This document shows, in pieces, positions 354 to 61,591 of a DNA stretch of 64,000 nucleotides; positions within the stretch are counted from its first letter, which is position 1, and the number at the start of each line of letters is the position of its first letter. Under the pieces are notes generated by a model, which saw only the letters and a list, made by a program, of their open reading frames with translations, made no database searches and had not been told where the DNA came from. Source of the DNA: an uncultured bacterium (GTDB lineage Bacteria; Armatimonadota; Abditibacteriia; Abditibacteriales; Abditibacteriaceae). The position numbers were made by a program, and so were the translations under genes. The DNA is taken from positions 1,488,001 through 1,552,000 of the forward strand of contig CAWJLW010000006.1 in assembly GCA_963843795.1 (NCBI GenBank), written 5' to 3'.

Positions 354-438
354 ATGCGCTGCAAGTACTTGCACTGCAGAAATGCAGCGCGGAACACGCC
401 TGTAAAGCTGCTGGTCACAGTTAAAGGAGGTTGCGATA

Positions 439-726
439 ATGAACACTTTCATTCCGCTCGAAGATGTGCGCGTGGCAACACCGTGCCGCGCTGACTGGAA
501 CAAAATGGAGGGCGACGGCAACGCGCGTTTTTGCGGCTCGTGCGCCAAAAATGTTTACAACCTGTCCGAGATGACGCGCGCCGATGCCGAACACTTGATT
601 CTGGAGCACGAAGGCCATTTATGTGTGCGCTATTATCAGCGCGCCGATGGCACCGTGCTCACCAAAGATTGTCCGGTTGGTATCACCGAACGTCGCCGTC
701 CGTTCCGCGATCACCAACAATGTTAG
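439..726 (+). CDS. Small Cys-rich hypothetical protein (PCxxxWxxM..RFCxSCxKxVYNLS..LCVR..DCPVG domain)
   Basis: AAGGAGG RBS at about 424-430; conserved-looking Cys pattern usually found N-terminal in longer proteins. Confidence 0.7.
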   Translation: MNTFIPLEDVRVATPCRADWNKMEGDGNARFCGSCAKNVYNLSEMTRADAEHLILEHEGHLCVRYYQRADGTVLTKDCPVGITERRRPFRDHQQC

Positions 727-756
727 GACAAATTGAAGCACCAAAGGAAAACCACG

Positions 757-1896
757 ATGAACAGCCCCGCAAGTACTTGCAGCCCCAATGAAACTCAAAA
801 CATAGATGACATCGCGTCCAAAGTTTGGAATGGCGAACGTTTATCTTATGAAGATGGCGTGCGTTTGATGCATCATCCAAATTTGAACGAACTGGCGATT
901 TTGGCCGATCACGTTCGCCAGCGCGTCAATCCGGGCCGCGTCGTGACGTATATCGCGGGGCGCAATATCAATTATTCCAACGTGTGCTGGGTGCAATGTA
1001 AGTTCTGCGCATTTTACGATTTGCCGTCCTCGCAAAAAGGCTACACGCTTTCGCACGATCAGATTTTTGGCAAAATCCAAGAAATGGTCGATTTGGGCGG
1101 TATCGAAATTCTGCTGCAAGGCGGCCTCAATCCGCGCTTGAAAATCGACTATTACGAAGATTTATTCAGCGCCATCAAAGCCAAATTCCCGCAAGTGTGG
1201 ATTCACGGACTCAGCGTCGCCGAAATTCTCTACATCGCCAAAATCTCACGCTTGAGTTTGGAAGACACCCTGAAACGTTTGCGCGCTGCCGGTTTGGGCA
1301 CGATTCCTGGCGCGGGTGCAGAAATGCTGGTCGATCGCGTGCGCAAAGTCATCGCGCCCTACAAAGATACGACTGCTGAATGGCTCGACACGATGAGTTT
1401 GTGGCACCGTTTGGGTGGCCATTCCAGCGTGACGATGATGTATGGAACGGTCGATACGCCCGAAGATCGAGTCGAGCACATGATTCGCACGCGCGATGTG
1501 CAAGATAAATCGCTGGCCGAAACCATGGGCAGTTTCACCGCGTTTATCGCGTGGAATTTTCAGCCTGATGGCACGCCATTAGGCAATCAATTGAAAAGTG
1601 AAACTCTCGATTGGCGCAAAGCCAGTGGCTTCGCTTATCTGCGCACCGTCGCCGTCGGACGTTTGCTGCTCGATAATATTCCACACCATCAAGCGAGTTG
1701 GGTCACGCAAGGCCCTAAAATCGCGCAAATCGCGCTAGATTATGGCTTAGACGATTTTGGCTCGACGATGATGGAAGAAAACGTGGTTTCCGCAGCCGGC
1801 ACCGATTTCGTGATGCCCATCAGCGAAATTGAACGCTTAATCAGCGAAGCGGGCTACGAACCCAAACGCCGCACTACACTTTACGAAGTGTTGTGA
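757..1896 (+). CDS. mqnC: Cyclic dehypoxanthine futalosine synthase (radical SAM, futalosine menaquinone pathway)
   Basis: RNINYSNVCWVQCKFCAF CxxxCxxC motif; LLQGG, PGAGAE, DFGSTMMEENVVSAAG. Confidence 0.85.
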   Translation: MNSPASTCSPNETQNIDDIASKVWNGERLSYEDGVRLMHHPNLNELAILADHVRQRVNPGRVVTYIAGRNINYSNVCWVQCKFCAFYDLPSSQKGYTLSHDQIFGKIQEMVDLGGIEILLQGGLNPRLKIDYYEDLFSAIKAKFPQVWIHGLSVAEILYIAKISRLSLEDTLKRLRAAGLGTIPGAGAEMLVDRVRKVIAPYKDTTAEWLDTMSLWHRLGGHSSVTMMYGTVDTPEDRVEHMIRTRDVQDKSLAETMGSFTAFIAWNFQPDGTPLGNQLKSETLDWRKASGFAYLRTVAVGRLLLDNIPHHQASWVTQGPKIAQIALDYGLDDFGSTMMEENVVSAAGTDFVMPISEIERLISEAGYEPKRRTTLYEVL

Positions 1897-1908
1897 ACTT
1901 GAAATTCA

Positions 1909-1942
1909 AAACGCGCCCTGCAAGTATTTGCAGGGCGCGTTT
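1909..1942. terminator. Hairpin downstream of mqnC centred on variant core GCAAGTATTTGC
   Basis: aaacgcgccctgcaagt|atttgcagggcgcgttt followed by a T-rich tail. Confidence 0.7.
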
Positions 1943-2134
1943 GTCGTTGTTTGAACTTGAAAATCAGTTCTATTAAACACTGCCTTTTGTTTGTTATGGG
2001 TTGAAATGAAACTAAAGCGGCTTCAAGCTGAGAGCATTGTGCAAATTTTTACTTTTGAATTGAAAGTCCGTTTCCTATTCTAAGTCACACAAAACAAAAA
2101 ATTTCTGTATAACGATGCCGTGCCTATAAATGCG

Positions 2135-3229: not shown

Positions 3230-3370
3230 TTATTCTCCGTTTCCCTGCTGCTTCCAAACCAAATAGCCCGCAAGTACTTGCAAGTACTTGCGGGCTATTA
3301 TTTTACAACGATAGCAAATTATTGGTTCTGCAAGTACTTGCAGAACCGACATCAAACTGATTTCAAATAT

Positions 3371-11062: not shown

Positions 11063-11239
11063 AGGAAAACGCCAGAAGAAATTTAAACAATGGTTACAAC
11101 ATTTACTGAACAATAGTTACTAACAACAATGACTGAATGTGGCGAGTCAATCGGCGCTGCAAGTACTTGCAGCGCCGGTGTCGGGCACTGCAAGTACTTG
11201 CAGATGAAAATTAACCGATTTAAAGGCTAAAATTAAAAT

Positions 11240-15252: not shown

Positions 15253-16611
15253 ATGAATGAAAATCCAGATATCCAAAACTTTGATATCGTTGTCTGCGGC
15301 GGTGGCCCGTCCGGTACGATGGCTGCCATTTCTGCCGCGCGTAACGGCGCGCGTGTCTTATGCATTGAGCGCCATCCGTTCGCGGGCGGCTCATCAACTG
15401 CTGCGGTAGTTTATCCGTGGCTTTCTTTCCACAACAAAAGCGGCCAGCAAGTACTTGCTGGGCTGGGACAAGAGCTTGTCGAGCGGTTGCAAAAAGTCGG
15501 CGGTTCGCCCGGGCATTTGCGTGATAGTATCGGTTTCGTATATTCGCTGACGCCGTTCGATCCCGACTTGACCAAGCAAGTACTCCTGCAAATGTCGCTT
15601 GAAGCGGGCGTGACGTGGCTGTTCGGCACGCAGATTATCGGCGTCGAAACTCAAAATCAAGCCATTCAAAGCGTGCGCGTCGCTAATAAAAATGGCCTGA
15701 GTCGAGTGAAAGCCCCTTTATGGATTGATTGTTCGGGCGATGCCGATATCGCTTTTATGGCGGGCGCAGCGATGCAATCGAGCCGCAAAGACGGGCAGTT
15801 GCAAACGCAGCCGATGACGATGAATTTTCGCTTATCTGGCGTCGACTGGAAGCCGATTCGCGCTTATATTCTGGATAATCCGCAGGAATTTCATCACGAA
15901 ACTTTGTTCGATGATTTGCGCAGGGGCGAGCCTTTGACGGGCGTCAGCGGCTATTTTTCGCTGTGGCGTGAAGACGCTGAAAAGTTGAGTGTGCCGCGCG
16001 ACCGTTTGTTGTTTTTTAGCGGCATTCGCACTGACGAATGTTACGTCAATACGAGCCGCGTTACGCAACTGGATGGAACAGAAGCGTGGGATTTGACTCA
16101 AGCCGAAATCGAAGGGCGACGTCAGGTAGGGGTGATCGCCGATTGGATGAAAGCGCGTGTGGGCGGTTTTGAAAACTCGTTTATTTCCTGTATTCCCACA
16201 CAAATCGGCGTGCGCGAAACCAGGCGTATCATCGGAGATTATCTGCTGTCGCAAGACGATGTAGTCAGTGGTGCGCGCTTCGAGGATGCCATTGCGCGTT
16301 CGGCGTATCCGGTCGATATTCACGCCCCAACCGGCGCAGGTCTGGTGACCAGCGAAGCGCCCGACGATTGGTATGAAATTCCCAGTCGATGCTTGCTGCC
16401 GCAGAATGTGGAAAATCTGTGGGTGGCGGGCCGTTGCATTTCGGCCACGCACGAAGGTCATGCCTCAACACGTTTGACGCCGACGTGCTTTGCAATGGGA
16501 CAGGCGGCGGGAGTGGCAGCAGCATTGTGCTCGAAAAAAAACTTGCGCCCGCGCGAATTAGAATTTGCTACCTTACGCGCGAAATTGCGCGAGCAGGACG
16601 CTTTAGTCTAA
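15253..16611 (+). CDS. FAD-dependent oxidoreductase (FAD_oxidored family)
   Basis: DIVVCGGGPSG, IDCSGDAD, GVRETRRI, AGRCISATH..R. Confidence 0.85.
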   Translation: MNENPDIQNFDIVVCGGGPSGTMAAISAARNGARVLCIERHPFAGGSSTAAVVYPWLSFHNKSGQQVLAGLGQELVERLQKVGGSPGHLRDSIGFVYSLTPFDPDLTKQVLLQMSLEAGVTWLFGTQIIGVETQNQAIQSVRVANKNGLSRVKAPLWIDCSGDADIAFMAGAAMQSSRKDGQLQTQPMTMNFRLSGVDWKPIRAYILDNPQEFHHETLFDDLRRGEPLTGVSGYFSLWREDAEKLSVPRDRLLFFSGIRTDECYVNTSRVTQLDGTEAWDLTQAEIEGRRQVGVIADWMKARVGGFENSFISCIPTQIGVRETRRIIGDYLLSQDDVVSGARFEDAIARSAYPVDIHAPTGAGLVTSEAPDDWYEIPSRCLLPQNVENLWVAGRCISATHEGHASTRLTPTCFAMGQAAGVAAALCSKKNLRPRELEFATLRAKLREQDALV

Positions 16612-16722
16612 AAATTACATTTCCTGAGCCACTTGATAAAATTAACGCTCAAATTTTATTTCTATTTGGTCAAGCTGCCTACGCCTGTCGCCAGAGTCAG
16701 AACTTCCTTACAAGCAATGAAA

Positions 16723-16768
16723 AGCAAAAACATCGCCTTGCAAGTACTTGCAAGGCGATGTTTTTGCT
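16723..16768. repeat. 46-bp perfect palindrome centred on GCAAGTACTTGC; probable bidirectional terminator
   Basis: agcaaaaacatcgccttgcaagt|acttgcaaggcgatgtttttgct. Confidence 0.85.
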
Positions 16769-16783
16769 ATACGCTCGTCTATT

Positions 16784-17578: not shown

Positions 17579-17663
17579 AGCTGTTGAAAGCAGCCTGCAA
17601 GTACTTGCAGCTATCCGCAAGTACTTGCAAGACAATTTTGTGGGCTTGGCTACACTGAAAGCC

Positions 17664-18506: not shown

Positions 18507-18679
18507 ACCGCATTTGAAATACACACAAATCAAAAATTTTGCGGTCTTTGGCTGTAAATTTCACTTTTGAAATCGAGAGAATTTTTGGGGTGAATTCATG
18601 CTGGATATGTCGTTGGATTTGATGGGCGTAATAATTGCGTGGCGAGATATGCGCGTGCAAGATTTCGAGGAAATGATTC

Positions 18680-39048: not shown

Positions 39049-39052
39049 CAAA

Positions 39053-40807: not shown

Positions 40808-40858
40808 AAATGGAGATGATGAAACGTGCTGCAAGTACTTGCAGCACGTTTTTGATTT

Positions 40859-44546: not shown

Positions 44547-44553
44547 ATTTCGA

Positions 44554-45414: not shown

Positions 45415-45481
45415 TTCGGGCGCAACATTGGTTGCAAGTACTTGCAACGGCTGCGCAGCTTTTAGGGGAATACTTAAAGCC

Positions 45482-47623: not shown

Positions 47624-47844
47624 TGCGCAAGTACTTGCACCGCTGCTTGCAAGTACTTGTGCATTATTTGAGAATTTTCTCACAGAGTTCTCAAACATCT
47701 CTTGTACAGCGCCCACATACTATTCTGCAATGGTCGGTGTGAGAATGTAGCGTATAAAAACAGGACACGAAATTTGAATTCCTGGCGCGCATTTCACATT
47801 TGAATCAACCACAATTGTGTTGGTATTTTGCAGGTAGGTGAATC

Positions 47845-48498
47845 ATGGAGAATCAGCGAGCGCAATTGCGTGTCGGGCGCTGTCAATATTGGGCGACGCA
47901 CGATGGGCAGCGAAGATTTTTGCTGTGCATGGGTGGCTTGTTGGTCTTGCGGCTGCTTTTTTTGACCGATGGTGTCACGCATCTCTGGGCATTGAGTGCG
48001 CACAATCTGGCTTTCGACCTGATTTTTCGCATCGCCAAACTTTTTGGGCGTGCCCCCTTCGCTTTCGCACTCGGCATCATTCTCTACGCAGTGGGAAAAT
48101 TTCGTGGGCGCGAAAAGTTACGACGCGCAGGCCGATTAATCATATGCAGCGTGCTACTTTCGGGTTTGATCGTGCTCATTGCCAAGCCGCTGTTTGGGCG
48201 CCACGAAAATCTGCACGCGATAACGCAAAACACGCACGCAGCGCGGACGGTATCGACAGTGATCGACGAGCGCTGGGGCCGCTTTCCTTCGGGCGATAGT
48301 ACAGTCGCGTTTGCTACGGCGGCCGCACTGGCGGTAGAATTTTCGGCGGCCACTGGAGCCGTAATGTTTTTAGCGGCCCTGACCGCGATAGGTCGCGTAT
48401 ACGGTAATATTCATCTGGCTTCCGATGTGTTTGCTGGTGGCTGCCTGGGTTGGGGCGTGACGCAATGGCTGAGCCAGCGCAGCTATTGCGCTCATTAG
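47845..48498 (+). CDS. PAP2-family membrane phosphatase (start uncertain)
   Basis: KPLFGR, FPSGDS, RVYGNIHLASDV. Confidence 0.75.
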   Translation: MENQRAQLRVGRCQYWATHDGQRRFLLCMGGLLVLRLLFLTDGVTHLWALSAHNLAFDLIFRIAKLFGRAPFAFALGIILYAVGKFRGREKLRRAGRLIICSVLLSGLIVLIAKPLFGRHENLHAITQNTHAARTVSTVIDERWGRFPSGDSTVAFATAAALAVEFSAATGAVMFLAALTAIGRVYGNIHLASDVFAGGCLGWGVTQWLSQRSYCAH

Positions 48499-48514
48499 AT
48501 ACAACCTTTCCACA

Positions 48515-50434
48515 ATGACAACGATACCGAGCGCCCTCGCTCCCCGGCCATTGCACCACCAAAGCACTGAAACCGTTCCACAACCAACTCCTTGGCAGCG
48601 CGATTTGCTGTGGATTTTTTTGTTGGCGTTGCCATTATTCTTCTGGGGAGTTGGCGCGTGGGGGTTTTTCGATCCCGACGAAGGACGCTACGCAGAAATT
48701 CCTCGCGAAATGCTCGTGCGACACGATTTCATCACACCGACACTCAATTTCCTCAAATACTTTGAAAAACCGCCGCTGCTGTACTGGAGCGTCGCTGCTT
48801 TCTATAAAATCTTTGGCTTCCACGAATGGGCCGCACGCTTAGTCTCGGCGCTCGCGGCGCTGCTGGGAGTGTTCACCGCCTACGCTCTGGGCCGCCGTAT
48901 GTTCGGACGGCGCGCCGGTTTGCTGAGCGCGATTATTCTGGCGACGTCGGTTTTTTGGGCCTTCATGGCGCGCTTCATTATTATCGATACGCTGCTTTCG
49001 GCGATGATTTTTCTGTCACTGGCTCTGTGGTGGCTCGGACACACGCAAGACACCGCTGGCAATGGACATGATGCTCATGAAGATAACTCGCGCACGCAAC
49101 TTTATTTTCTGGGGTTTTGGGTGGCATTAGCACTGGGCGTGTTGTCCAAGGGGCCGGTTGTCGTCGTTTTAATCGGCGGCACAATTTTCCTTTATACGGC
49201 GATTTGCCAACAGTGGCGGGCGTGGACGAGAATGCAATGGATTTTGGGCGTGCCGTTGTTTCTGCTGGTGACGGCACCGTGGTTCGTTTTGGTGGCGCAG
49301 CGCAATCCCGAATTCAATCATTTCTTCTGGTATGACCAACACATCGGACGTTTCCTGGGCAGAGGCAAAGTCGAGCATCAGCAGCGGGTGTATTGGTTTT
49401 TGGAATTCCTGCCGCTGCTGTTTTTCCCGTGGTCATTTTTTGTGCCCGCTGCTTTAATCGAAGGTTGGCGCAAATTAAGGCGCGCGCCCCGTAACGCCGA
49501 ACTTTATACGCCACGCCAACGCGCCGTGATTTTCCTGCTGTGCGGTGCCGGTTTTATCACTGCTTTCTTTTCATTGTCCAGTTCGAAATTATTGACTTAT
49601 GTTTTGCCGGTTTTGCCTCTGCTTGCTGTCTTGATGGCGGCTTATTTCAACTTTCTGCTCGAACGCATAGAACGAAATGAAATGCATTCGTGGCATCGTG
49701 CACTCAGCGGTGGCGCGCTAGCATTAACGCTGGTTTTAGTACTGACAGTTATTGGCGGCGCCACAGTCGGCGTGAAAAAGCTGTATTCTATCGAGGCCTT
49801 GTCCGCGCTTTATGTGGTGCCTGTATGCATCGCGTGCGCGCTTTGGGCATCGAGTCTGATGTGGGCGACGCGGCGGCGGCGGTTGGGCTGGCTGATAGTG
49901 GCGATTTCGGGCGGTTTTTCGGCGTTTTTACTGGGCGCGTTGTTCATCGTGCAAGCCGCCGCGCCCAATCATTTGCCGCAAGCCTTAATTGCTTACATTC
50001 AGCCCGGTTTGCGAGCCGGTGGCAAAGTTGCCACTTGGAATAGCTACACGCAAAGCGTCGGCTTTTATTCGGGGCAACGGTTGCGCACTTTCGTCAATCA
50101 CGAAGATACCGATGCCGGTGAACTGGTGGAAATTCCGCTCAGCCAGCAGAATATGAGCGAAGCAGAACAGAAGTTTTGGTTTCCGGTTGGCATTGAAGAT
50201 TTGCGACAGTTTTTGGCGCAGGACAAACCGGCCTACTGCTTGATGAAAGATCATCAAATGGCGCAGCAAGTACTTGCACAGCTCAATGATAACTCGCAGG
50301 AAATCATTTGGAACAAGCGGCGCGCTCTGATCGGTAATCGCGCTGCCGTTGCTCTCACGCCGCCCAAGCCCGGCGGTTTGCTGGGCGTCGAGACCGCAGA
50401 TATTAAAAACAGCGTTCTCGAGCGCTCTAATTAA
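48515..50434 (+). CDS. arnT: ArnT-like GT-C lipid-carrier-dependent glycosyltransferase
   Basis: DPDEGRYAEIPREM, YFEKPPLLYW, LSKGP, SKLLTY; adjacent to arnBCAD. Confidence 0.88.
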   Translation: MTTIPSALAPRPLHHQSTETVPQPTPWQRDLLWIFLLALPLFFWGVGAWGFFDPDEGRYAEIPREMLVRHDFITPTLNFLKYFEKPPLLYWSVAAFYKIFGFHEWAARLVSALAALLGVFTAYALGRRMFGRRAGLLSAIILATSVFWAFMARFIIIDTLLSAMIFLSLALWWLGHTQDTAGNGHDAHEDNSRTQLYFLGFWVALALGVLSKGPVVVVLIGGTIFLYTAICQQWRAWTRMQWILGVPLFLLVTAPWFVLVAQRNPEFNHFFWYDQHIGRFLGRGKVEHQQRVYWFLEFLPLLFFPWSFFVPAALIEGWRKLRRAPRNAELYTPRQRAVIFLLCGAGFITAFFSLSSSKLLTYVLPVLPLLAVLMAAYFNFLLERIERNEMHSWHRALSGGALALTLVLVLTVIGGATVGVKKLYSIEALSALYVVPVCIACALWASSLMWATRRRRLGWLIVAISGGFSAFLLGALFIVQAAAPNHLPQALIAYIQPGLRAGGKVATWNSYTQSVGFYSGQRLRTFVNHEDTDAGELVEIPLSQQNMSEAEQKFWFPVGIEDLRQFLAQDKPAYCLMKDHQMAQQVLAQLNDNSQEIIWNKRRALIGNRAAVALTPPKPGGLLGVETADIKNSVLERSN

Positions 50435-50495
50435 GGCGTTGGCAAACCAAGAGGCGGCAAGTCGATAACACTCTGGCGCGCTCCAAGGATCATTG

Positions 50496-51668
50496 ATGTA
50501 TTTCCGAGAAGATTTTTTACCGTTTTCGCGACCCTCGATTTCCGAAGCCGAAATCGCCCAGGTCGCCGAGGTTTTGCGCTCCGGCTGGATCACCACTGGT
50601 CCGCGCAACGCCCAGTTTGAAGCCGACTTTTGCGCTTATACCGGCAGCCGACACGCCGTCGCCATCGCTTCGGCCACGGCGGGAATGCACCTGCTTTTAG
50701 AAGCCATGAACATCGGTCCTGGCGACGAAATCATCACACCTTCAATGACGTGGGTTTCCACGCCGAACCTCATTACGCTTAGCGGTGCGCGTCCGGTCTG
50801 GGTCGATGTTGACCGTGACACGTTGCAAATGCAGCCCGCCGCCTTGCGCGCTGCCATCACGCCGCGCACGCGCCTCATCGTGCCCGTTCATTTCGCCGGG
50901 GCGCCCGCCGACCTGGACGCGCTGCGCGCCATCGCCGAAGAACACGATATTGCCTTGGTTGAAGATGCCGCGCACGCCATCGGAACCGAATATCGCGGCG
51001 AGAAAATTGGTGCGCGCGGCTCGTCGATTTTCTCGTTTCATCCCATCAAAAATCTCACTACCGGCGAAGGCGGAATGTTTTGTTCGGACGACGATGCGCT
51101 GATTGAACAGGTGCGGCGTTTGAAGTTTCACGGATTGGGCGTAGATGCTTTCGACCGTCAGATGCAAGGCCGCTCGCCGCAGGCCGAAGTACTGGAGCCG
51201 GGCTTCAAATATAATCTCACCGACATCGCCGCCACGCTTGGCATCAGTCAGCTGGCACAATTGGACGAATTCATCGCGCGCCGCACGCAGTTGGCCGCGC
51301 GTTACTACGAACTGCTGGCCGATATTCCCGAAATTTCGCCCTTGCAAGTGCCGCCGTATCCGCATCGTCATGCGTGGCATTTGTTCATCGTGCGCGTGGA
51401 CATCGAACGCGCCGGTTTGACGCGTGACGAATTTATGGCCGCGCTCAAAGCGCGCAATATTGGCAGTGGGTTACATTTTCGCGCCGTGCATTCGCAGAAG
51501 TATTTCCGCGAAAACAGTTTCCATGAAGTCGATTTGCCTAACACCAATTGGAATTCCGCGCGCATTTGTTCGCTGCCGTTGTTTCCCGCCATGCGCGACG
51601 ACGATGTAGACGCGACCGTCTCAGCGATTCGGGACGCGTTGGGCGCGGCGAAAAGAGGAAGCCTATGA
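50496..51668 (+). CDS. arnB: UDP-4-amino-4-deoxy-L-arabinose aminotransferase
   Basis: [48 protein letters not shown]. Confidence 0.93.
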
Positions 51669-52729
51669 AAGCGATGTCGCCCATCGAAACGGTTTCGGTC
51701 GTAATTCCGGTTTACAACGAAGAAGGCAACTTGCCCGAACTCTTGCGCCGCACTCTGGAATCGTGCCGCGCCATGCAGCGCCCGTTCGAACTGATTCTGA
51801 TTGATGATGGTAGCCGCGATAGCTCGGTGAATCTCATGGAAGCTGCGGCAGCGCAAAATGCGGAAGTGGTGTGCGTGCTGCTCAATCGCAATTATGGTCA
51901 ACATGCGGCAATCATGGCCGGTTTCGCGCAGGCGCGTGGCGATCTGGTAATTACGCTCGATGCCGATTTACAAAACCCGCCGGAAGAAATTCCCCGTTTG
52001 GTCGAAAAAGCCGGCGAAGGATTCGATGTCGTGGGCACAGTGCGACTCAACCGCGCCGACAGCGGTTTTCGCAAATTCGCCAGTTCTCTGGTCAACAAAG
52101 TGACGGCTAAAGCCACTGGTGTGATGATGCACGATTACGGTTGTATGCTGCGCGCTTATCGTCGTCACGTCGTCCAAGCGATGCTGCAATGCCACGAGCG
52201 CAGCACTTTCATTCCCGCGCTGGCCAATTCGTTCGCGCGCCACGCAACCGAAATCGAGGTTTCGCACGCCGCGCGCGCGACCGGCGAATCGAAATACAGC
52301 GTGTGGAAGCTAATCAATTTGCAGTTCGATTTGCTCACTGGCATCAGCACGTTTCCATTGCGTTTGCTGAGCTTGATCGGTACTTTCGTTTCAGTCTTAG
52401 GTATTGGCTTTGGTGTTTTGCTTTTGGCGTTGCGTATATTTTTTGGTCGCATATGGGCAGCCGAAGGCGTTTTCACTTTGTTCGCCATCTTGTTTATTTT
52501 CGTCGGTTTGCAGTTCATCGGCATGGGACTTCTGGGCGAATACATCGGGCGCATTTATCAGGATGTGCGCGCTCGTCCGCGCTTTTTTGTGCAAGAAGTG
52601 AGCGGAACTGGGTTGCGGAAAATGGACGCGAACACCAATGATTTGGACAGCGCACCGATGCCGATTGGCGCGGGCACGCCACATTTGCGCGAAACGGAAG
52701 CCGTGCAAGTACTTGCAGCGCGTTCATAA
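51665..52729 (+). CDS. arnC: Undecaprenyl-phosphate Ara4FN transferase
   Basis: [62 protein letters not shown]. Confidence 0.93.
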
Positions 52730-52840
52730 GCAGAAGTTCATTTAAAAGCAGAAACTGATTGAATCTTCGTGCTTTGAACGTGGTGCAAGTACTTGCAGCG
52801 CAACAGTATCAACATCCATCCCTCAAGGATTAAAATTTCT

Positions 52841-54841
52841 ATGAAAGCAGTTGTCCTGGCATATCACAATGTTGGTTGCGTTGGTCTCGAAGCTTTGCTG
52901 CGTCACGGCGTCGAAGTCGTGGCCGTATTCACACACCGCGACGATCCACACGAAAACGTCTGGTTCGATTCGGTGGCGGCTCTGGCCGCCGCGCACAACA
53001 TTCCGGTTTACGCGCCCGACGACATCAATCATCCAATTTGGACGCGGCGCATTGCGGAAATGCAGCCGGATATTTTGTTTTCGTTTTATTATCGCAACCT
53101 GATTCGCCCCACTCTACTCGATATTCCGCCGCAAGGCTGTCTCAATTTGCATGGTTCGCTGCTGCCCAAATATCGCGGGCGCGTGCCGGTTAACTGGGCT
53201 TTGATTCACGGAGAAACGGAAACCGGAGTTACGCTGCACTACATGACGCCGCGCCCCGACGATGGCGACATCGTCGCCCAACAAAGCATGCCAATTACGC
53301 CCAACGACACCGCGCGCACGCTTTTCGACAAAATCGTCGGCGCATCCACGCAACTTTTGGACGGTATTCTGCCCGCCATCATCGCTGGCAACGCGCCGCG
53401 CACGCCACAAAACGCTGCCGAAGCGACTTATTTCGGCGGGCGCAAAGCCGATGACGGCGAAATTGACTGGACACAAAGCGCCACGCAAATCCGCAACTTA
53501 ATTCGCGCCGTTTCGCAGCCTTATCCGGGCGCATTCACGCAACATCTCGACGATAAACTCATCGTGTGGCAAGCGACGGTCGCGGAAGCGAAAAAGGCCG
53601 AGGCGGGCACAATTCTTTCGCTCGAACCGCTGCTTATCGCGTGTGGCGAAGGCGCTTTGCGCATCGATTTCGCGCAGGCCGAGAACGGCATTTACACTAC
53701 GGGCGCGCAGGCCGCCGCAGAATTGCGTTTGGTGGCTGGCACGAAATTGGGCGTTCGCCCGCCGCAGCGAGTGAAGAAAAAAACCAGCATTTTGATTCTG
53801 GGCGCCAACGGTTTCATTGGCAACGCGCTCAGCGAGCGTTTACTGGCCGACGGCAATTATGAAATTCACGGTCTAGATTTGCACTGCGACAAAATCGAGC
53901 GTTTGCTGGGCCGTCCCAATTTTCATTTCGAAGAAGGCGATATTTCAATTCATCGCGAATGGATCGAATATCATGTGCGCAAATGCGATGTCGTAATTCC
54001 TCTGGTGGCCATCGCCACGCCGATTGAATATGTGCGCAACCCGCTGCGCGTTTTCAACCTGGATTTCGAGGAAAACCTGCGCGTGGTGCGCTACTGCGCC
54101 AAGTATCGCAAGCGCGTCGTTTTCCCTTCAACTTCCGAAGTTTATGGAATGTGCGACGAGGACGAATTTGATGAAGACAATTCACAATTGGTGCTGGGAC
54201 CAATTCGGATGCAGCGCTGGATCTATTCCTGCTCCAAGCAATTGTTGGATCGCGTGATCTGGGCTTACGGTCAGCAAGAAGGTTTGCAGTTCACGCTTTT
54301 CCGACCGTTCAACTGGATCGGCCCGCGTCTGGACACTTTGCAATCGGCACGCATCGGAAGCTCGCGCGCGATTACGCAACTGATTTTGAATCTGGTCGAA
54401 GGTAGCCCCATTTCTCTCGTCGATGGCGGCCTGCAAAAGCGCTGTTTCACTGCCACAGATGACGCCATCGAGTGTTTGTTCCGCATCATTGAAAACCCGG
54501 ACGGCGTTTGCGATGGCCAGATTTTCAACATCGGCAATCCCGACAACGAAGCCAGCATCAAAGAACTCGCGCAAATGGTCGTCGATGAATTTGAAACGCA
54601 CCCGCTGCGTTCGCATTTTCCGGCTTTCGCCGGTTTTCAGGAAGTCGAAAGCGCCAATTATTATGGCAGCGGCGGCTATCAGGACGTGGAACATCGTCGT
54701 CCCAGCATTCACAAAGCTGATAAATTGCTCGGCTGGACGCCCACAATCGGGATGCAGGAAGCGGTTGCGATCACGGTCGATTTCTTCTTGCGCGAAGCCA
54801 TTGAAAGCGGCGATTTCGCGCTTAATTCCGTCGAGGTTTAA
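52841..54841 (+). CDS. arnA: Bifunctional UDP-GlcA decarboxylase / UDP-Ara4N formyltransferase
   Basis: [51 protein letters not shown]. Confidence 0.95.
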
Positions 54842-54847
54842 ATCATT

Positions 54848-55750
54848 TTGGGCATAAATTCCCGCCAAATTGGCTTGCGCATCGATGTCGATACTTTGCG
54901 CGGCACGCAGCGCGGTGTACCCGCGCTGTGCCGCATTCTGGCGCAGCGACAAATCAAGGGCACGTTCTTTTTCTCGGTCGGCCCCGACAATATGGGCCGC
55001 CATTTGTGGCGCTTATTGAAGCCGCAATTTCTGCTCAAGATGCTGCGTTCCAACGCCCCTTCGCTCTATGGCTGGGACATCATTTTGCGCGGCACGCTGT
55101 GGCCCGGCCCACTTATTGGCGCGGCCAATGTCACGGCGATTCGAGCCGTCGCCCAGGGCGGCCACGAAATCGGCATTCACGCTTGGGATCATTACGCCTG
55201 GCAAACCCACGTCGAACGTGCTGGTTTGGCGGGCGTGCGCGAATGGATGCAGCGCGCCGCGCAAGTTCTCACCGACATCACCGGACGCGCGCCGACGTGC
55301 GCTGCCACGCCGGGCTGGCGTTGTACAGATGAAGTTTTGATTAATCGCGAAGAATTTGACTTCGCTTTCAACAGCGATTGTCGCGGCCAAAGCGTATTTC
55401 GCCCGCAGGTCAAGGGGCAAGCTCTTTCGCAACCACAAGTTCCCAGCACATTGCCAACGTATGACGAACTCATTGGTCAAGATGGCATCACCAACGAAAA
55501 CTACAATCGCCATTTGATGAGTTTATTGCGCCCGAATCAATTGAACGTTTTGACAATTCACGCCGAAGCCGAAGGCATCGTGTGCGCCGATTTGTTCGCG
55601 CAATTTTTAGATGAAGTGCTATCGCAAGGCTGGCAGGTTGTGCCGTTGGGCAGAATTGTGCAGCAGGCCCAGTCGCAGACATTGCCGCAATGCGAGGTTT
55701 TGAAGCAAGTGATTGCGGGCCGCGAAGGTTGGGTAGCGGCGCAAAGCTAA
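54848..55750 (+). CDS. arnD: Ara4FN deformylase (TTG start uncertain)
   Basis: GLRIDVDT.RGT, FFFSVGPDNMGRHLWRL, HAWDH, TIHAEAEG. Confidence 0.93.
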   Translation: MGINSRQIGLRIDVDTLRGTQRGVPALCRILAQRQIKGTFFFSVGPDNMGRHLWRLLKPQFLLKMLRSNAPSLYGWDIILRGTLWPGPLIGAANVTAIRAVAQGGHEIGIHAWDHYAWQTHVERAGLAGVREWMQRAAQVLTDITGRAPTCAATPGWRCTDEVLINREEFDFAFNSDCRGQSVFRPQVKGQALSQPQVPSTLPTYDELIGQDGITNENYNRHLMSLLRPNQLNVLTIHAEAEGIVCADLFAQFLDEVLSQGWQVVPLGRIVQQAQSQTLPQCEVLKQVIAGREGWVAAQS

Positions 55751-55786
55751 AAATATGTTGCAAGTATTTGCAACATATTTTTAGCT
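55745..55786. terminator. 42-bp palindrome (one mismatch) spanning the convergent stops of arnD and the feo cluster
   Basis: agctaaaaatatgttgcaagt|atttgcaacatatttttagct. Confidence 0.8.
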
Positions 55787-55976
55787 ATTTCGATTGTGGC
55801 GGTTTCAAATTCATCTGAATTTGCACCAGTTCTGGCTGCTTCGGCGCGGTGTTCGATGGGCATTTGCCGCAACCGCCGTTGCCGCACGAGCCGCCGCCCA
55901 TCGAATCGCGCAGGGTGCGCCACACGTTCCATGCGGCGACCCCGACGATAGCAAAAACTGCAATTTCTTGTATCAT
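55785..55976 (-). CDS. FeoB-associated small Cys-rich membrane protein
   Basis: One TM helix then GSCGNGGCGKCP; directly downstream of feoB. Confidence 0.8.
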   Translation of the reverse strand: MIQEIAVFAIVGVAAWNVWRTLRDSMGGGSCGNGGCGKCPSNTAPKQPELVQIQMNLKPPQSK

Positions 55977-56037
55977 TTTCTGTTCTCTAACTTGTTTCAA
56001 TCAAACTTTCGTCCTGCAAGTACTTGCAGGGCAATTT

Positions 56038-58245
56038 TTAGCCCCAGCCGAGCCAGCGCCCGCCTTGATAGACAATCAAACTGGCGAAATAGGCCAGAGC
56101 CGTGAGATAAACCTGCATCACAATTGGCCATTTCCAGCCGTTAGTTTCGCGACGCACAATCGCCAAAGTCGAAATGCACTGCATCGCCAAGACGAAATAA
56201 ACCAAGAGCGAAACTGCGGTTAAGGTCGTCCAGACCGGACGGCCATCAGGCCAGCGGTCGGCGCGCAAGCTGTCTTGCAATGGTCGCGAGGTTTCATCCG
56301 CATCGGCGACCGAATACACGGTGCCCAGCGTCGAAACGAACACTTCGCGAGCCGACATCGCGCCGATTAAGCCGATGCCAATTTTCCAGTTGAAGCCCAG
56401 CGGCGCAATCAATGGTTCGATGACGTGGCCCAAACGACCCGCGAACGAATGACTAATTTGATCTGCTGCTTCGTGCTCTGCCTCCATTTTTTCCGCCCTT
56501 TGATCTGCGGTCACGGACGAAGTTTGCGCGGTAGGCATGGGCTGCGCGGGAGCAAGAATCGGCGTTTTGGGATAGCTAAGCAGGAACCAGAGCAGAATCG
56601 AAAGCGATAAAATTACGGTGCCAGCGCGTTTCAAAAACTGGCTGGCGCGATCCCACATCGTCACTAATATGTTGCGCCAACTCGGTGTTTTATACGCGGG
56701 CAACTCCAAAATCAACGAAGGCGGCGGCCCTTTCAAAACCGTGCTTTTCAAGAACCACGCCACCAATAGCGCAGCAATCACGCCGCCGGCATACAGCGAA
56801 AAAAGCGTCACGGCGCGCAACGATAGGACGCCCCAGTGACGGTTAGGGATAAACGCGCCGATCATCAGCGCATAAACTGGCAGGCGCGCCGAACACGCCA
56901 TTAACGGCGCAATTAAAATTGTCGTCAAGCGGTCGCGAGGGTCGGCGATGGTGCGCGTGGACATGATTCCCGGAATCGCACAGGCGAAGCTGGAAACGAG
57001 GGGAATAAAAGCGCGCCCATGCAAGCCGACCCGCGCCATCAATCTGTCCATCAAAAACGTGGCGCGCGCCATGTAACCGGTGTCTTCCAGCAAGCCGGTG
57101 AAGAAAAATAAGACCAAAATTTGTGGCAGGAAAATCACGACCGCGCCCACGCCCGCGATCACACCATCGACAACCAAATCGCGCAACGGGCCTTCCGGCA
57201 TTGACTGCGTCACCAGATTACCGGTTTGCGCCACCATCCCATCAATCCAATCCATCGGCACGGTGGCCCAGGTATAAATCGCTTGAAAAACCAGCAGAAT
57301 AATCAGCGCAAAAACTGCTAATCCGCCAATCGGATGCAGCAAAACGCTATCGACTCGGTCAGAAAACGAGCGCGGCGTTTGACTTTTAATTTGTTTGGTC
57401 ACGCGACGCGCGATTTGGGCGCTTTGCGTATGGCGCGCGCGCGCTTCTTCGGCGCCGATATCGCGCCCGACTTCTTTGGCGTGCAAATCGACGCAGGCTT
57501 CGATTTCCGGCCCCAACTGCGCGCGCCAACTCGCATCGGGAGAAGGGTCAGCCAGAATGCGCAGCGCGTTGGCTTCGCGGGCGCGCACGGTTTTCGGTAA
57601 GCGCTCGGCGATAATATTGCGCGCTACGCTCACATCTTCAGGCAGCGAAAGTTCCAAAGAACGCGGCGCGCCTTCTTCCACGACCAGCGCCAATTGTTCG
57701 CGCAGTTCATCCAAACCCTCGCCACGAATCGCAACACATGGCACGACCGGAGCGCCTAATTCGCGCGCCAATTCTTCGCTGTCGATTTCTTTGCCCTGCG
57801 CAAGGGCTACATCGCTCATGTTCAGCGCGATGACCGTCGGATAACCCAACTCAAGCACTTGCGTTGCCAGATATAAATTACCGCCCATATTGGAAGCATC
57901 GACGACGAGAATAATCGCATCGGGCAAATCGAGTTCGCTGCGCCAGTGCAGCAAAACGTCGCGCGTGATAGTTTCATCGGGTGAAGTTGGAACCAGAGAA
58001 TAAGTGCCCGGCAAATCTAATAAAGTCGCTTCGCCCCGCTCGGGCAGCCACAAGCGGCCTTCTTTTTTCTCGACTGTGACGCCAGGATAATTACCCACTT
58101 TCTGGCGCAGGCCGGTGAGAGCGTTGAACAGCGTAGTTTTGCCCGCATTGGGATTGCCGACCAGAGCCACACGCCGCGCCACTGCGGGCGCGCGCTTGTG
58201 CATGTCAGAAGCGCCAATTAAAACGGGAGAAGATACAGTTTTCAC
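56038..58245 (-). CDS. feoB: Ferrous iron transporter FeoB
   Basis: GNPNAGKT, VGNYPGVTVEKK, DLPGTYSL, LEDTGYMAR, CSARLPVY. Confidence 0.97.
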   Translation of the reverse strand: MKTVSSPVLIGASDMHKRAPAVARRVALVGNPNAGKTTLFNALTGLRQKVGNYPGVTVEKKEGRLWLPERGEATLLDLPGTYSLVPTSPDETITRDVLLHWRSELDLPDAIILVVDASNMGGNLYLATQVLELGYPTVIALNMSDVALAQGKEIDSEELARELGAPVVPCVAIRGEGLDELREQLALVVEEGAPRSLELSLPEDVSVARNIIAERLPKTVRAREANALRILADPSPDASWRAQLGPEIEACVDLHAKEVGRDIGAEEARARHTQSAQIARRVTKQIKSQTPRSFSDRVDSVLLHPIGGLAVFALIILLVFQAIYTWATVPMDWIDGMVAQTGNLVTQSMPEGPLRDLVVDGVIAGVGAVVIFLPQILVLFFFTGLLEDTGYMARATFLMDRLMARVGLHGRAFIPLVSSFACAIPGIMSTRTIADPRDRLTTILIAPLMACSARLPVYALMIGAFIPNRHWGVLSLRAVTLFSLYAGGVIAALLVAWFLKSTVLKGPPPSLILELPAYKTPSWRNILVTMWDRASQFLKRAGTVILSLSILLWFLLSYPKTPILAPAQPMPTAQTSSVTADQRAEKMEAEHEAADQISHSFAGRLGHVIEPLIAPLGFNWKIGIGLIGAMSAREVFVSTLGTVYSVADADETSRPLQDSLRADRWPDGRPVWTTLTAVSLLVYFVLAMQCISTLAIVRRETNGWKWPIVMQVYLTALAYFASLIVYQGGRWLGWG

Positions 58246-58365
58246 GGAAATTGAAGAAACACAAAAGGGAGAAAAAGGAAGTTTAAACGCAAAAAGCCCG
58301 TTGCAAGTACTTGCAACGGCGCTTTAGCAGGTCGGGCGCAGCACATTTACTAATTCATTTTCGTT

Positions 58366-58689
58366 TCAATCCTCAACATCGCGGCACAACACTTTTTCAG
58401 CGACCGCGTGGGCCAAACCAAAACGGGCATCGCACACACGCACCACAATCGGATGACCGTGTCGTAAAATTGTCACCCGAGCGCCTTCACACAAGCCCAA
58501 ATCGCGTAATCGCGCCGCCTCGCCCGCATCGTTGCACAACTGCTCGATGCGCACGCACTGTCCAGCACGCGCACAGCACAACGCCGTACATTGAGCCGCG
58601 TGCTCGTGAAGCGCCTGCGAGCGGGATGCCTCGTGGTGATTTTTCAACGGCGTGGCTTTTTTCCGACGGGCGAGAAATGTTGGTTTCAT
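58366..58689 (-). CDS. feoA: FeoA family protein
   Basis: RLRDLGLCEG..V.ILR..PIVVRV..RFGL; upstream of feoB. Confidence 0.85.
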   Translation of the reverse strand: MKPTFLARRKKATPLKNHHEASRSQALHEHAAQCTALCCARAGQCVRIEQLCNDAGEAARLRDLGLCEGARVTILRHGHPIVVRVCDARFGLAHAVAEKVLCRDVED

Positions 58690-58881
58690 AACAATGAATA
58701 AACAGTGCAATTCTAAATCCGACTCTTTCGCTCGGATTTGATTTCTAAATGCCAATTTAACCCAAAGACGCGCACAATGCAATACCGAATGGGAAAATTC
58801 ACCTACTTTCTATCGGGCATTTTCTGGCGGCAAAAGTTGCGCTCGGCATTTAAAAACCCTGTTTCGCTAAACTGCATAGCG

Positions 58882-60030
58882 ATGCAAGCGAGCAAAAGGA
58901 CGAAAAACGGAAAAAGTTGTGATGTCGCGGTGATTGGCGGCGGAATTATCGGTTTGAGTTGTGCGTGGCGATTGGCACAGCGCGGATTGCAGGTATCGCT
59001 TTTCGAGCGCGGCGCCTTGGCTGGGGAAGCCACCCGCGCGGCGGGCGGAATGCTTGCCGCGCAGTGTGAAACCGCTCATCACGCGCCAGACACCCAAGAG
59101 ACTGCCGCACGCAATGCGATGTTCGCTGCCGGCTTATCATCGCGCGCTTTGTATAGCGAATTCGCGCGCGAATTGAAAAATCTCACCGGCATCGACCCGC
59201 AACTTTCGCTGCGCGGCTCTACTGACGATTGGCGTACGCCGGGCATTTTGTATATCGCCAGCAATCGCGACGACGGCGCTGCGCAGGCTTTTGCTATTCA
59301 GAAAAATTGCGGTCATGCCGTCGAACCCACGCATTTCGGCCCGTTTGATGCGTGGTGGCTGCCCGATGAAGGCCAAATCGACAACCGTTTGCTGGCGCAA
59401 TCCTTGACCGCGGCGTGCGAAAATTCGGGCGTGGAACTGCGAGCGTACACATCTTTAGAAAACGTCGATTTGTACGACGAAAGCGTTGATTTGATTTGCG
59501 GCAGCGAAAATGTGCGCTGCAAGTACTTGCTGATGTGCGCGGGCGCGTGGAGTGATGGCCTGCTGCCATTTTCTCTGCCCACACGACCGCTGCACGGCCA
59601 AATTGTGCTGCTGCAAACGCAACGACAAATCGACCGCGTTTTGTATGCCTCAGAGGTTTACTTAGTGCCGCGCCGCGACGGGCGATTGCTCATCGGCGCA
59701 ACCATGCAAGAGCGCTCTTTCGACCAAACCTCTACCGCGCGCGGCGTGCATTTTCTGCTGAATCGTGCCTTGGAATTGGCACCCGAGCTGGGCGATTGCG
59801 CCCTGCTCGATCACTGGGCCGGTTTGCGACCGATAACGCCCGATGGTTTGCCGTTTATCGGGCGCACACAGCACCCGCAAGTACTTGCCGCGACCGGGCA
59901 CGGACGCAACGGCATTCTGCTGGCACCTCAAACGGCTCAGTGGATTGCCGAAGAAATCGTCGAAAATCAAAGCGCGCCACGCGAATTTTCGCCGCAGCGT
60001 GTGGTAGTCAAAAGCAGCGCTTCGTTATGA
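58882..60030 (+). CDS. thiO: Glycine oxidase ThiO
   Basis: VIGGGIIG, AAGGML, YLVPR.DGR, WAGLRP.TPDG.P, ATGHGRNGILLAP; overlaps thiS. Confidence 0.9.
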   Translation: MQASKRTKNGKSCDVAVIGGGIIGLSCAWRLAQRGLQVSLFERGALAGEATRAAGGMLAAQCETAHHAPDTQETAARNAMFAAGLSSRALYSEFARELKNLTGIDPQLSLRGSTDDWRTPGILYIASNRDDGAAQAFAIQKNCGHAVEPTHFGPFDAWWLPDEGQIDNRLLAQSLTAACENSGVELRAYTSLENVDLYDESVDLICGSENVRCKYLLMCAGAWSDGLLPFSLPTRPLHGQIVLLQTQRQIDRVLYASEVYLVPRRDGRLLIGATMQERSFDQTSTARGVHFLLNRALELAPELGDCALLDHWAGLRPITPDGLPFIGRTQHPQVLAATGHGRNGILLAPQTAQWIAEEIVENQSAPREFSPQRVVVKSSASL

Positions 60031-60224
60031 AAATTATGCTCAACGGTGCAACTCACCAAACTCAGGCGGGTAACATTGGCGAACTGTTGCGCGAACTGGA
60101 AATGCCCGAACGGGGCATTGCAGTCGCGCGCAACCACCAGGTGGTACGTCGTGCGGAACATAACACGACTGCGCTACAGGAAAACGATATTATCGAAATC
60201 ATCCGCGCCGTTCAGGGCGGATAA
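60027..60224 (+). CDS. thiS: Sulfur carrier protein ThiS
   Basis: MKIMLNG...IAVARN...IEIIRAVQGG ending in diglycine. Confidence 0.95.
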   Translation: MKIMLNGATHQTQAGNIGELLRELEMPERGIAVARNHQVVRRAEHNTTALQENDIIEIIRAVQGG

Positions 60225-60351
60225 CGAAGAATTTAAAAGCAAGATGTGAGAGAAGAGAACTATGAGATGCTCATTTGCTCTGCGCGCAAATACCTGCAGA
60301 GCGTTTTTCAGTTCTGTTCTCTAACTTCTCCCTCTCGAATAAAGGAATTTT

Positions 60352-61122
60352 ATGCAGGATACATTTGAATTAGCGGGCCGCACATTTCAATCGCGCCTGA
60401 TGTTTGGCAGCGGTAAAAATGTCGATTACAAATTGATGCGCGAATGCATCGACGCTACCGAAGCCGAAATCGTCACCGTCGCCATCCGTCGCATTCCCAC
60501 CGACGACGCGCCCGGCGCGGGTCTGATCGACCATCTCAAAGGACTCACGCTTTTGCCCAATACGGCGATGTGTTACTCGGTGAAAGATGCGGTTCTCACC
60601 GCTCAACTGGCGCGCGAAGCACTGGAAACCAACTGGGTGAAATTGGAAGTTATCGGCGATCCCGACACGTTGTTTCCCGATAATGAAGGCACACTCGAAG
60701 CCGCCAAAATTCTGATCAAAGATGGCTTCACCGTTTTGCCTTATTGTAATGACGACCCAATCATTTGCCGTAAATTGCAAGATATGGGCTGCCCTGCGGT
60801 GATGCCTTTGGCCGCGCCGATTGGCTCAGGACTGGGCATTCGCAACGAAACCAATTTGCAGATTATCCTGGAAAAAGCTACCGTCCCGATTATCGTCGAT
60901 GCCGGTGTTGGAACTGCGAGCGATGCCAGTCGCGCGATGGAATTGGGCGCATCTGCAGTGCTTTTGCAGACCGCAGTGTACGGCGCTAAACATCCGTTAC
61001 AAATGGCACACGCAATGAAACACGCCATCATCGCCGGACGTTTGGCGCATCTGGCGGGCCGCATTCCGCGCAAGTTATATGCAACCGCTTCCAGCCCTAG
61101 TGAGGGCGTTGTAAATTCTTAA
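60352..61122 (+). CDS. thiG: Thiazole synthase
   Basis: [40 protein letters not shown]. Confidence 0.97.
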
Positions 61123-61147
61123 ATTTTGTATTTCAAGGAAATAATTT

Positions 61148-61468
61148 ATGCAACGCATCGGTTTTTTGATTCGCGTCAAACCCGATAAATTGGACGAATA
61201 CAAGCGCTTACACGCGCAAGTGTGGCCGGAATTGCTGGAAGAATTGTCAAAAGCCGGAATGCGCAATTATTCACTGTGGCTCAAACCCGACGGAACGGAA
61301 TTCGGTTATTTAGAATGTGAAGATTGGCAAGCGGCATGCGCTTACCTTGACAAAAGCGAAGTTCACACACGCTGGCAAGAATTTATGCGAGATTTTCTTG
61401 ACACAGCAGCGACTGGTGAGGGCGGGCAACCGATAGAAATGTTGGAAGAAGTATTCTATCTGGCCTGA
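61148..61468 (+). CDS. rhaM: L-rhamnose mutarotase family
   Basis: EYKRLH..VWPE, G.RNYS.W, WQEFM, EEVFYL. Confidence 0.85.
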   Translation: MQRIGFLIRVKPDKLDEYKRLHAQVWPELLEELSKAGMRNYSLWLKPDGTEFGYLECEDWQAACAYLDKSEVHTRWQEFMRDFLDTAATGEGGQPIEMLEEVFYLA

Positions 61469-61591
61469 GTAAATTGGCAAGTATTCGCGCCAATGCTGAT
61501 GCAAGTACTTGCCATCCCTTGTCATAAGATGACTGCATTGCTCAAAAGCCGTAAACTATCAAACTCCGCTTTGGTTTGAAGTGTAATCCGT

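Follow-up and report, generated by a model that had tools for sequence, protein, structure and literature searches.

The 12-bp palindrome GCAAGTACTTGC is iterated roughly once per 1.7 kb (0.60 copies per kb) in the genome of an uncultured bacterium of the family Abditibacteriaceae (G000; 4.30 Mb in 11 contigs, 92% complete). The stretch in which it was noticed, 64,000 nucleotides long (G000:C6:1488001-1552000), is called the window below. The word is real and belongs to an undescribed system at the level of the lineage, broadly of a kind already known. It may be a species-specific mark of self DNA, of the type of uptake sequences and HIP1, driven by transformation; we put the probability of this reading at roughly 45%.

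Abundance of the word in the source genome

The original prediction had counted about 40 exact and about 11 one-mismatch copies in the window. Exactly 40 copies of GCAAGTACTTGC are present, from position 361 to 61512, against an expectation of 0.00 in 100 shuffles of the window, and a search allowing up to one mismatch returns 51 matches, the 11 one-off copies lying at the very positions predicted. The genome-wide count against a Markov background, which had been proposed as a check, gives 2,567 exact copies distributed over all 11 contigs, whereas 1.9 would be expected under an order-5 Markov model of the genome after masking. GCAAGTACTTGC is by far the most frequent 12-mer of the genome; the runner-up among 12-bp palindromes has 33 copies. 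One-off copies number 506, compared with 1 to 5 for four control palindromes. The claimed frequent extension to TGCAAGTACTTGCA is found at 1,290 of the 2,567 copies. Flanks beyond 14-16 bp do differ among copies, as had been stated, but they are not featureless, since they share a degenerate symmetric consensus with phased AT tracts.

An assembly artefact can be rejected, because a short-read contig and independent metagenome assemblies carry GCAAGTACTTGC. The short-read contig, from run X1 (possibly the source sample), includes the copy at 8171 and matches at all but one of 259 letters, and in the independent metagenome assemblies the same 12-mer is the commonest AGTACT context in 28 loci of other organisms. 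Literature searches with the word, with Abditibacterium palindromes and with AGTACT, covering mostly papers outside subscription and excluding supplements, did not find GCAAGTACTTGC in print, in line with the original prediction.

Placement in genes, spacers and predicted terminators

By our own dicodon gene calls (3,468 genes, uncurated), 754 copies are coding, 1,806 fall in spacers that could be classified and 7 lie at the edges of contigs, so that about 70% are intergenic. The density is 0.20 per kb inside genes versus 1.9-4.3 per kb in spacers, with a peak between convergent genes. Perfect inverted repeats of at least 9 bp per arm surround 475 of the 2,560 classified copies, compared with 4 of 2,560 after the left and right flanks were shuffled. 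Such arms are found at 181 of 291 copies between convergent genes, 266 of 1,248 between codirectional genes, 22 of 267 between divergent genes and 6 of 754 coding copies. The word is the usual tip of predicted intrinsic terminators, because 532 of the 782 structures with a hairpin and a T-tract found after 3,077 genes (terminator-like by our own crude definition) hold the exact word, and folding puts the word centre in the loop. Allowing up to two mismatches, the number rises to 600 of 782. Six examples from the window have folding energies of -20 to -44 kcal/mol and z scores from -7 to -12, the word centre forming a four-base loop. In the same genome, the word has no fixed position relative to promoter-like hexamers, and there is no peak of -10-like hexamers.

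Spacing, flanks and symmetry

The copies are spaced more evenly than at random, with a coefficient of variation of 0.82 versus 1.19 +/- 0.02 in 300 class-preserving permutations. Each spacer holds 0.6-0.8 copies irrespective of its length, the variance being smaller than the mean. Coding copies are 0.38-fold as frequent less than 200 bp from a spacer copy and about twofold as frequent beyond 1.5 kb. Within 500 bp of a spacer, the coding rate is 0.133 per kb if the spacer is occupied versus 0.250 per kb if it is empty (p=2.7e-7, controlling for position within the gene). Copies fill gaps over 0.5-1 kb, and one site appears to serve roughly a kilobase.

At a finer scale, neighbouring copies share one helical face (period 10.5 bp, 286 pairs, Rayleigh nR2=30.6). 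The flanks have AT peaks about 15, 25, 36, 46 and 56 bp from the dyad, a period of 10.4 bp that extends to about 60 bp, and their consensus is symmetric: A-rich, GC-rich, core, GC-rich, T-rich. These phased flanks are present at non-hairpin and coding copies too, and at four-fold degenerate codon positions the period is 10.2 bp, the genome background being 11.2 bp. Both halves of the word are needed, as GCAAGTACT occurs 5,134 times with a perfect other half versus 130 times with two or more mismatches in it. A two-fold symmetric protein may therefore bind and bend the duplex word, as far as sequence patterns can indicate.

On the chromosome scale, the mapping relative to origin and terminus that had been proposed revealed no bias. 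On contig C6, the density is 55-73 copies per 100 kb where the GC skew switches, near 1.45-1.5 Mb, and 51-73 around dnaA at 3.42 Mb. The two 26-kb gaps of this contig are islands rich in insertion sequences (IS), and the plasmid-like contigs C3, C4 and C11 are poor in the word, with 7-24 copies per 100 kb versus 63. No convincing long-range period was found, the top peak being 9.6 times the mean among about 3,450 frequencies. Autoregulation was looked for in the 8 triple clusters of the word, none of which lies beside an obvious DNA-binding gene.

Origin of the coding copies

Coding copies prefer one reading frame: 492 encode QVLA, versus 147 and 115 in the other two. The QVLA peptide is accordingly inflated 15-fold (563 in G000, 500 of them coded by the word, versus 38 expected), and ASTC occurs 133 times versus 4 expected. 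When perfect coding copies were aligned to orthologues of relatives, 24 of 29 had no gap within 9 bp (background gap rate 9%), and at the ungapped copies the orthologues differ from the G000 word by about 6 of 12 letters. Five of 12 AGTACT cores of G000 coincide with a core of the relative G001 in that genome's own dialect, a figure inflated by protein constraint; in more distant organisms of the same dialect, 0 of 10 perfect copies of G000 and 0 of 3 of relatives coincide. Judged by these alignments, coding copies mostly arise by substitution and are also lost and regained in this way, even at the cost of amino-acid changes. The one-off coding copies number 39, 14, 18, 52, 20 and 19 at folded positions 1 to 6, so the central GTAC is not spared. 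The gap-free coding copies and the varying arms agree with the earlier claim that the word is iterated genome-wide and is neither a miniature inverted-repeat transposable element (MITE) nor a repetitive extragenic palindromic (REP) unit.

Words and dialects in related genomes

Repeating the count in related genomes, as had been suggested, shows that 10 of 27 family genomes hold such a word at 0.6-1.2 per kb: G000, G001, G006, G007, G009, G012, G015, G016, G018 and G019. No dispersed word was found in samples of 24-88 kb from each of ten others (G002, G003, G005, G008, G010, G013, G014, G017, G021 and G023), and the remaining seven were searched for the known words only. The exact GCAAGTACTTGC has 0-3 copies in each of the 26 other family genomes, and AAGTACTT has at most 97 copies in any of 250 other genomes of a phylum sample, in which G001 was not drawn. 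A scan of GTDB with an 18-mer gave 7 single chance-like matches among the matches listed.

Three classes of word can be distinguished. First, six genomes have AGTACT-centred palindromic dialects, with 2,813-4,733 copies of AGTACT in G000, G001, G009, G012, G015 and G019 versus 1-285 in the other 21. In sampled DNA, the dialect is CAAAGTACTTTG in G001, TCGAGTACTCGA in G009, G015 and G019, and YGAGTACTCR in G012. A tree of AtpD leaves the monophyly of the AGTACT genomes undecided. Second, the word of G006 is the non-palindromic GTACGGTCGA, with 1,473 + 1,508 copies, often in fixed inverted pairs within T-tailed hairpins. Third, G007, G016 and G018 have the non-palindromic CAGCCACG, with 2,676-3,503 copies versus about 300 for the control; it is at background level in the other 24 genomes.

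Some word-free relatives have features of their own. GTAC is nearly absent from the sampled DNA of G005, G008, G011 and G013, where AGTACT has 1-13 copies in 5-6 Mb. The spacers of G005 contain tandem 7-bp repeats of the AATCGTCAATC type in inverted clusters (L046:17750-17900, L014:290-390). At least 12 attC-like repeats starting with AACAAGGCGCTGCACCCG lie between short genes in G017:C44:100001-120000 (L045), resembling the cassette array of a chromosomal integron.

Phages, mobile elements and metagenomes

Of 33 metagenome loci carrying the word, 28 belong to other organisms, which have a GC content of 61-69%, show 34-75% amino-acid identity and use a looser dialect, CAAGTACTTG. The other five have no chromosomal match; three have clear phage matches (tape measure, primase, helicase, replication initiator) and two have weak ones. 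Outside the seed, these five contain another 7 perfect copies in 21.8 kb, and phage DNA carries the word at 0.3-0.6 per kb. A 58-kb phage with terminase, portal and ParAB genes has 27 words of the G006 type in 43.7 kb and no G000 word, whereas contig C4 of G000, which shares 8 of its 100 proteins with this phage, has 24 words of the G000 type and no G006 word. Viral scans with patterns of the G000 and G009 types returned mostly single matches, and no RNA holder was listed.

Several other observations concern mobile DNA. Contig C4 (100 kb) resembles a phage-plasmid, with ParA genes and a resolvase. On contig C3, positions 2600-27300 contain a nearly word-free group of sheath-, tube- and baseplate-like genes (by eye from protein starts) that looks like an extracellular contractile injection system. 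A 289-base A/T homopolymer at G000:C6:529517, in an IS-rich island, is probably an assembly artefact. Two small related elements (L334 and L354, 73% identical over 2.2 kb) each have a replication-initiator-like gene, identified by eye, and one hairpin of the G000 type. The IMG/VR contigs L193, L213, L220 and L226 are AT-rich phages unrelated to G000, with several operator-like palindromes of the GTGCAAGTACTTGCAC type between genes.

Candidate proteins

G000 encodes one beta-class adenine methyltransferase (G000:C6:2517365-2518135), 77% identical to one assigned to Abditibacterium utsteinense and 69% to one of an Abditibacteriaceae metagenome-assembled genome, which places G000 in this family. 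Among solved structures, M.RsrI and M.MboIIA-type enzymes are the closest, but this kinship does not identify the recognition site. Orthologues were found in 22 of 27 family genomes, two of them broken, and G016 has none by the query used. We treat the enzyme as an orphan because an Mrr-like gene adjoins it in 3 of 22 loci (G005, G014 and G041) and the other neighbours vary, none being constant. The correlation with orphan methyltransferases that had been proposed as a check holds in one direction: all 7 genomes with a GTAC word have the gene, but so do 15 without one (two broken). Among genomes without a GTAC word, the GTAC ratio is 0.00-0.44 with the methyltransferase (10 genomes) versus 0.12-0.82 where it was not found (5 genomes), in samples of 15-113 kb after five genomes below 15 kb were dropped (p=0.008, related genomes not being independent). 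Other 4-mers show no visible difference between the two groups. Because avoidance of GTAC follows the presence of the methyltransferase, GTAC is likely its target.

Genes for natural transformation are present. The comEA, comEC, dprA and comM-like genes were each found in all five genomes tested, including G000, which also has pilB and pilT. In the pilus operons of 20 relatives, no extra or altered genes distinguish the word-positive genomes. We also noted two comEA paralogues in G009 (L104, L106) and G012 (L100, L105) and one comEA in G000, G006 and G002.

Other candidate readers were tried and rejected, and no gene for a reader was found among those examined. A TetR-type reader like SlmA has no support in G000, with 0 TetR_N matches in the 92% complete genome, and no NucS was found in G000 or G009. 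HU is present as one ordinary copy in all five genomes tested, word-positive and word-negative. RAYT transposases do not fit either, since Y1_Tnp does not track the word (one weak match in G000, none in G006, many in negatives). No highly expressed DNA-binding gene stands out in G000, where codon bias is too weak for ranking.

A possible self-DNA mark and its alternatives

Under the reading preferred here, a sequence-specific protein, most likely a symmetric dimer, would bind the duplex word and bend the DNA for five or more helical turns to either side. This binding would give word-bearing fragments an advantage in natural transformation, be it at uptake, processing or recombination, and molecular drive would therefore spread point mutations that create the word, up to the density, about one copy per kb, at which the benefit saturates. 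The palindrome could then have been co-opted as a ready-made tip of intrinsic terminators. Shifts in the specificity of the reader would give the dialects of the relatives, and the shared GTAC core would probably be N6-methylated by the family-wide orphan methyltransferase. The protein reader, its dimeric state, the methylation of GTAC and the role in transformation are what we infer from the patterns described above. In favor of this reading are the density, the scarcity in genes, the frame bias with its peptide inflation, the ungapped coding copies, the even spacing and gap filling, the placement in terminator-like hairpins and the phased AT tracts. The dialects around a conserved core (with the non-palindromic words in inverted pairs), the scarcity of copies in IS-rich islands and plasmid-like contigs and the competence genes also speak for it.

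A number of observations weigh against transformation as the driving force. First, the correlation with ComE- or ComP-type genes, proposed as a check, is not seen: competence and pilus genes are alike in word-positive and word-negative genomes. G000 has no strongly basic, ComP-like pilin (net charge at most +4; no search with a ComP profile was made), and in its type IV pilus operon (G000:C6:385800-402500) pilC, pilD and two pilin-like genes are frame-split or shortened. The background of such genes is 20 of 258 loci, and the split pilus genes reflect either decay or assembly error. Second, the palindromy of the word and the rarity of half-words depart from the non-palindromic uptake sequences. 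Third, coding copies are not depleted in codon-atypical genes of G000, and phage or phage-plasmid DNA carries the word at near host density, also inside primase and helicase genes. Finally, the spacing features would all fit a protein that binds the word inside the cell, too.

Such an intracellular protein is the basis of the alternative that survives best, which we consider doubtful but worth serious attention. The copies would be sites of an abundant dimeric DNA-bending protein, either a nucleoid organiser or a self-marking defence or repair factor, selected at about one per kb; the dialects would follow the protein, and resident phages and plasmids would adopt the host word as an aid inside the cell. 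The strict dyad symmetry of GCAAGTACTTGC, the symmetric flank phasing to about 60 bp with neighbouring copies on one helical face, and the presence of about one copy per spacer at any length all argue for it. So do the exclusive G000 words of C4 and G006 words of the related 58-kb phage, as well as the broken look of the G000 pilus genes. However, no candidate for this protein emerged, TetR and NucS being absent in G000, HU being ordinary and no DNA-binding gene standing out. Moreover, most sampled close relatives live without such a word, the copies show no promoter-hexamer position, origin/terminus bias or clear long-range period, and the non-palindromic words of four relatives need no symmetric dimer.

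Methylation-directed repair or gene conversion at GTAC, which would make the word locally after Elhai's proposal for HIP1, seems improbable. The distribution of the orphan methyltransferase, found in all the GTAC-word genomes among its 22, and the GTAC avoidance that tracks the gene are consistent with it. A local bias, however, cannot give the repulsion between copies over 0.5-1 kb or the 60-bp phased flanks. In the one-off copies the centre is not spared, the gene is present in 15 genomes that have no GTAC word, CAGCCACG lacks GTAC, and G016 lacks the gene by the query used.

It is also quite improbable that the word is read as RNA, namely as a short GUAC-looped hairpin to which a factor for termination or for the protection of 3' ends would bind. 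Although 68% of the terminator-like hairpins carry the word at the tip, and arms of at least 9 bp are found at 62% of the sites between convergent genes, about 21% between codirectional ones, 8% between divergent ones and 0.8% inside genes, the 754 coding and 267 divergent-spacer copies are mostly stemless. The duplex-type phasing of 10.3 bp at synonymous positions and the kilobase gap filling point to DNA rather than RNA, and the G006 and CAGCCACG words lie in stems or singly, not in loops. Lastly, the copies could be a family of REP/REPIN or MITE elements mobilised by a transposase of the RAYT type. This would suit mostly intergenic, palindromic and often hairpin-forming copies and the REP-like pairs of G006 and G016, but it is very improbable and largely refuted by the mostly indel-free coding copies, the differing arms and the distribution of Y1_Tnp.

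Returning to the self-DNA mark, we tentatively extend it to the family as a whole, with more reserve than for the word itself: the Abditibacteriaceae might have an undescribed marking of self DNA in which a dimeric bending reader, possibly sensing methylated GTAC, rewrote genomes about every kilobase and switched dialects repeatedly, also between palindromic and non-palindromic words, tracked by phages. If true, the family would either add a third independent case to the uptake-sequence systems, with a receptor of a new kind, or use a code inside the cell, for self/non-self recognition or for chromatin, that has no known counterpart. The family offers a natural experiment, with ten word genomes, three core classes, at least 10 sampled word-free relatives and phages in host dialects, and uptake drive versus selection for chromosome binding therefore becomes testable. 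The words could also be used as species tags for contig binning and for assigning phages to hosts.

Copies and structures in the window

The array of 40 exact and 11 one-off copies (361..61512) has 27 copies in spacers and 13 in genes by our own gene calls. The window genes are housekeeping genes; among the 47 window proteins scanned (3 without a Pfam match) there is no candidate DNA-binding or DNA-modifying gene, as the original prediction had stated.

Terminator-like structures are prominent. A hairpin after an mqnC-like gene (1909..1942, + strand) has a one-off word at its tip, a GUAU loop and a folding energy of -28.3 kcal/mol. Between a murA-like gene and mreB, a hairpin with a doubled core (3262..3299, - strand) contains copies at 3270 and 3280, 10 bp apart, and a third copy follows 50 bp on at 3330. 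Perfect inverted repeats surround the word with 17-bp arms at 16723..16768 (terminator-like) and at 39003..39048 after argS (- strand), and with 20-bp arms at 23387..23438, where convergent genes lie on either side and a bidirectional terminator may be suspected. An inverted repeat with 9-bp arms follows a phosphoglucomutase-like gene (40822..40851, - strand).

Pairs of copies lie 31 bp, or three helical turns, apart in a spacer of the ATP synthase operon (11159..11201) and 20 bp apart at 17597..17628, and at 47627..47660 an exact copy directly behind a stop codon is followed 22 bp on by a one-off copy. Single spacer copies with arms of 0-7 bp start at 361, 4859, 8171, 14036, 15171, 20329, 25276 and 32669 and, in the rest of the window, at 33940, 37084, 42360, 52785, 56016, 58303 and 61501. 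Nine coding copies are in the QVLA frame (15447, 21788, 35724, 41865, 45137, 45434, 50266, 52705 and 59877; span 15447..59888). One in the ASTC frame lies near the start of the mqnC-like gene (769..780, + strand), argS contains two that are 43 bp apart in the KYL and ASTC frames (39283..39337, - strand), and a further KYL-frame copy is at 59519. A tmRNA gene occupies 33508-33867 (- strand), with a one-off word at 33483 just past its 3' end.

Comparison with known systems

To our knowledge, sequence-specific words of self DNA are established only for Neisseriaceae and Pasteurellaceae, plus the cyanobacterial HIP1, whose function is debated. The SlmA binding site, which we take to be GTGAGTACTCAC, is a 12-bp palindrome with the AGTACT centre of GCAAGTACTTGC. 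Unlike SlmA sites, GCAAGTACTTGC has thousands of copies and no exclusion from the terminus, and no TetR-family gene was found in G000. A chromosome-domain role of the matS, SlmA or Noc type, which had been considered at the outset, is disfavored by the lack of origin/terminus bias and of TetR in G000.

Published accounts describe the uptake signal sequences (USS) of Pasteurellaceae and the DNA uptake sequences (DUS) of Neisseriaceae as non-palindromic where known, with a density of 0.80-0.89 per kb, and as evenly spread, originating by substitution, rarer in genes and inflating certain peptides (PMC2817400). Uptake is reported to drop to baseline about 600 bp from a USS (PMC7811141), which carries helically phased T-tracts (PMC3458573; phased AT tracts also in PMC7811141). 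The USS is like GCAAGTACTTGC in having about one copy per kb, even and gene-poor, with frame bias and peptide inflation, phased AT tracts and use in terminators. It is, however, asymmetric with tracts on one side, whereas GCAAGTACTTGC is strictly palindromic and has tracts that reach about 60 bp in both directions.

About 55% of Neisseria terminators are said to hold a DUS (PMC1852404), the dialects of which share a conserved core (PMC3630211), and genes acquired recently are reported to lack DUS (PMC2397512). The DUS, read by ComP, resemble the present words in having dialects on a short core, occupying a majority of terminators and arising without insertion. In contrast, DUS terminators consist of an inverted pair, whereas here a single palindromic copy forms the hairpin tip. 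Also unlike DUS, this one family has three unrelated core classes and many word-free members, and its phages carry the word.

HIP1 and alternate HIPs (PMC4390886; PMC5861425) share with the present word an iterated palindrome, a 4-bp core that probably matches an orphan adenine methyltransferase, variants in relatives and a proposed link to transformation. One-off copies of HIP1 spare the methylated central AT (PMC4390886, section 2.6), and methylated HIP1 is described as raising transformation (10.1101/2024.09.10.611283; PMC13756078). GCAAGTACTTGC is unlike HIP1 in being 12 bp long, AT-centred, 70% intergenic and terminator-capping, with a centre not specially protected and no clear periodicity of tens of kb. 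The HIP1-like character proposed in the original prediction therefore stands for the iterated palindrome and its variants in relatives, but the uptake sequences are the closer analogue, because most copies are intergenic, many cap terminator-like hairpins, the AT tracts of the flanks are phased, some relatives have non-palindromic words, and one-off copies do not spare GTAC. In its genome statistics, palindromy excepted, the word resembles an uptake sequence, a class to which it may belong.

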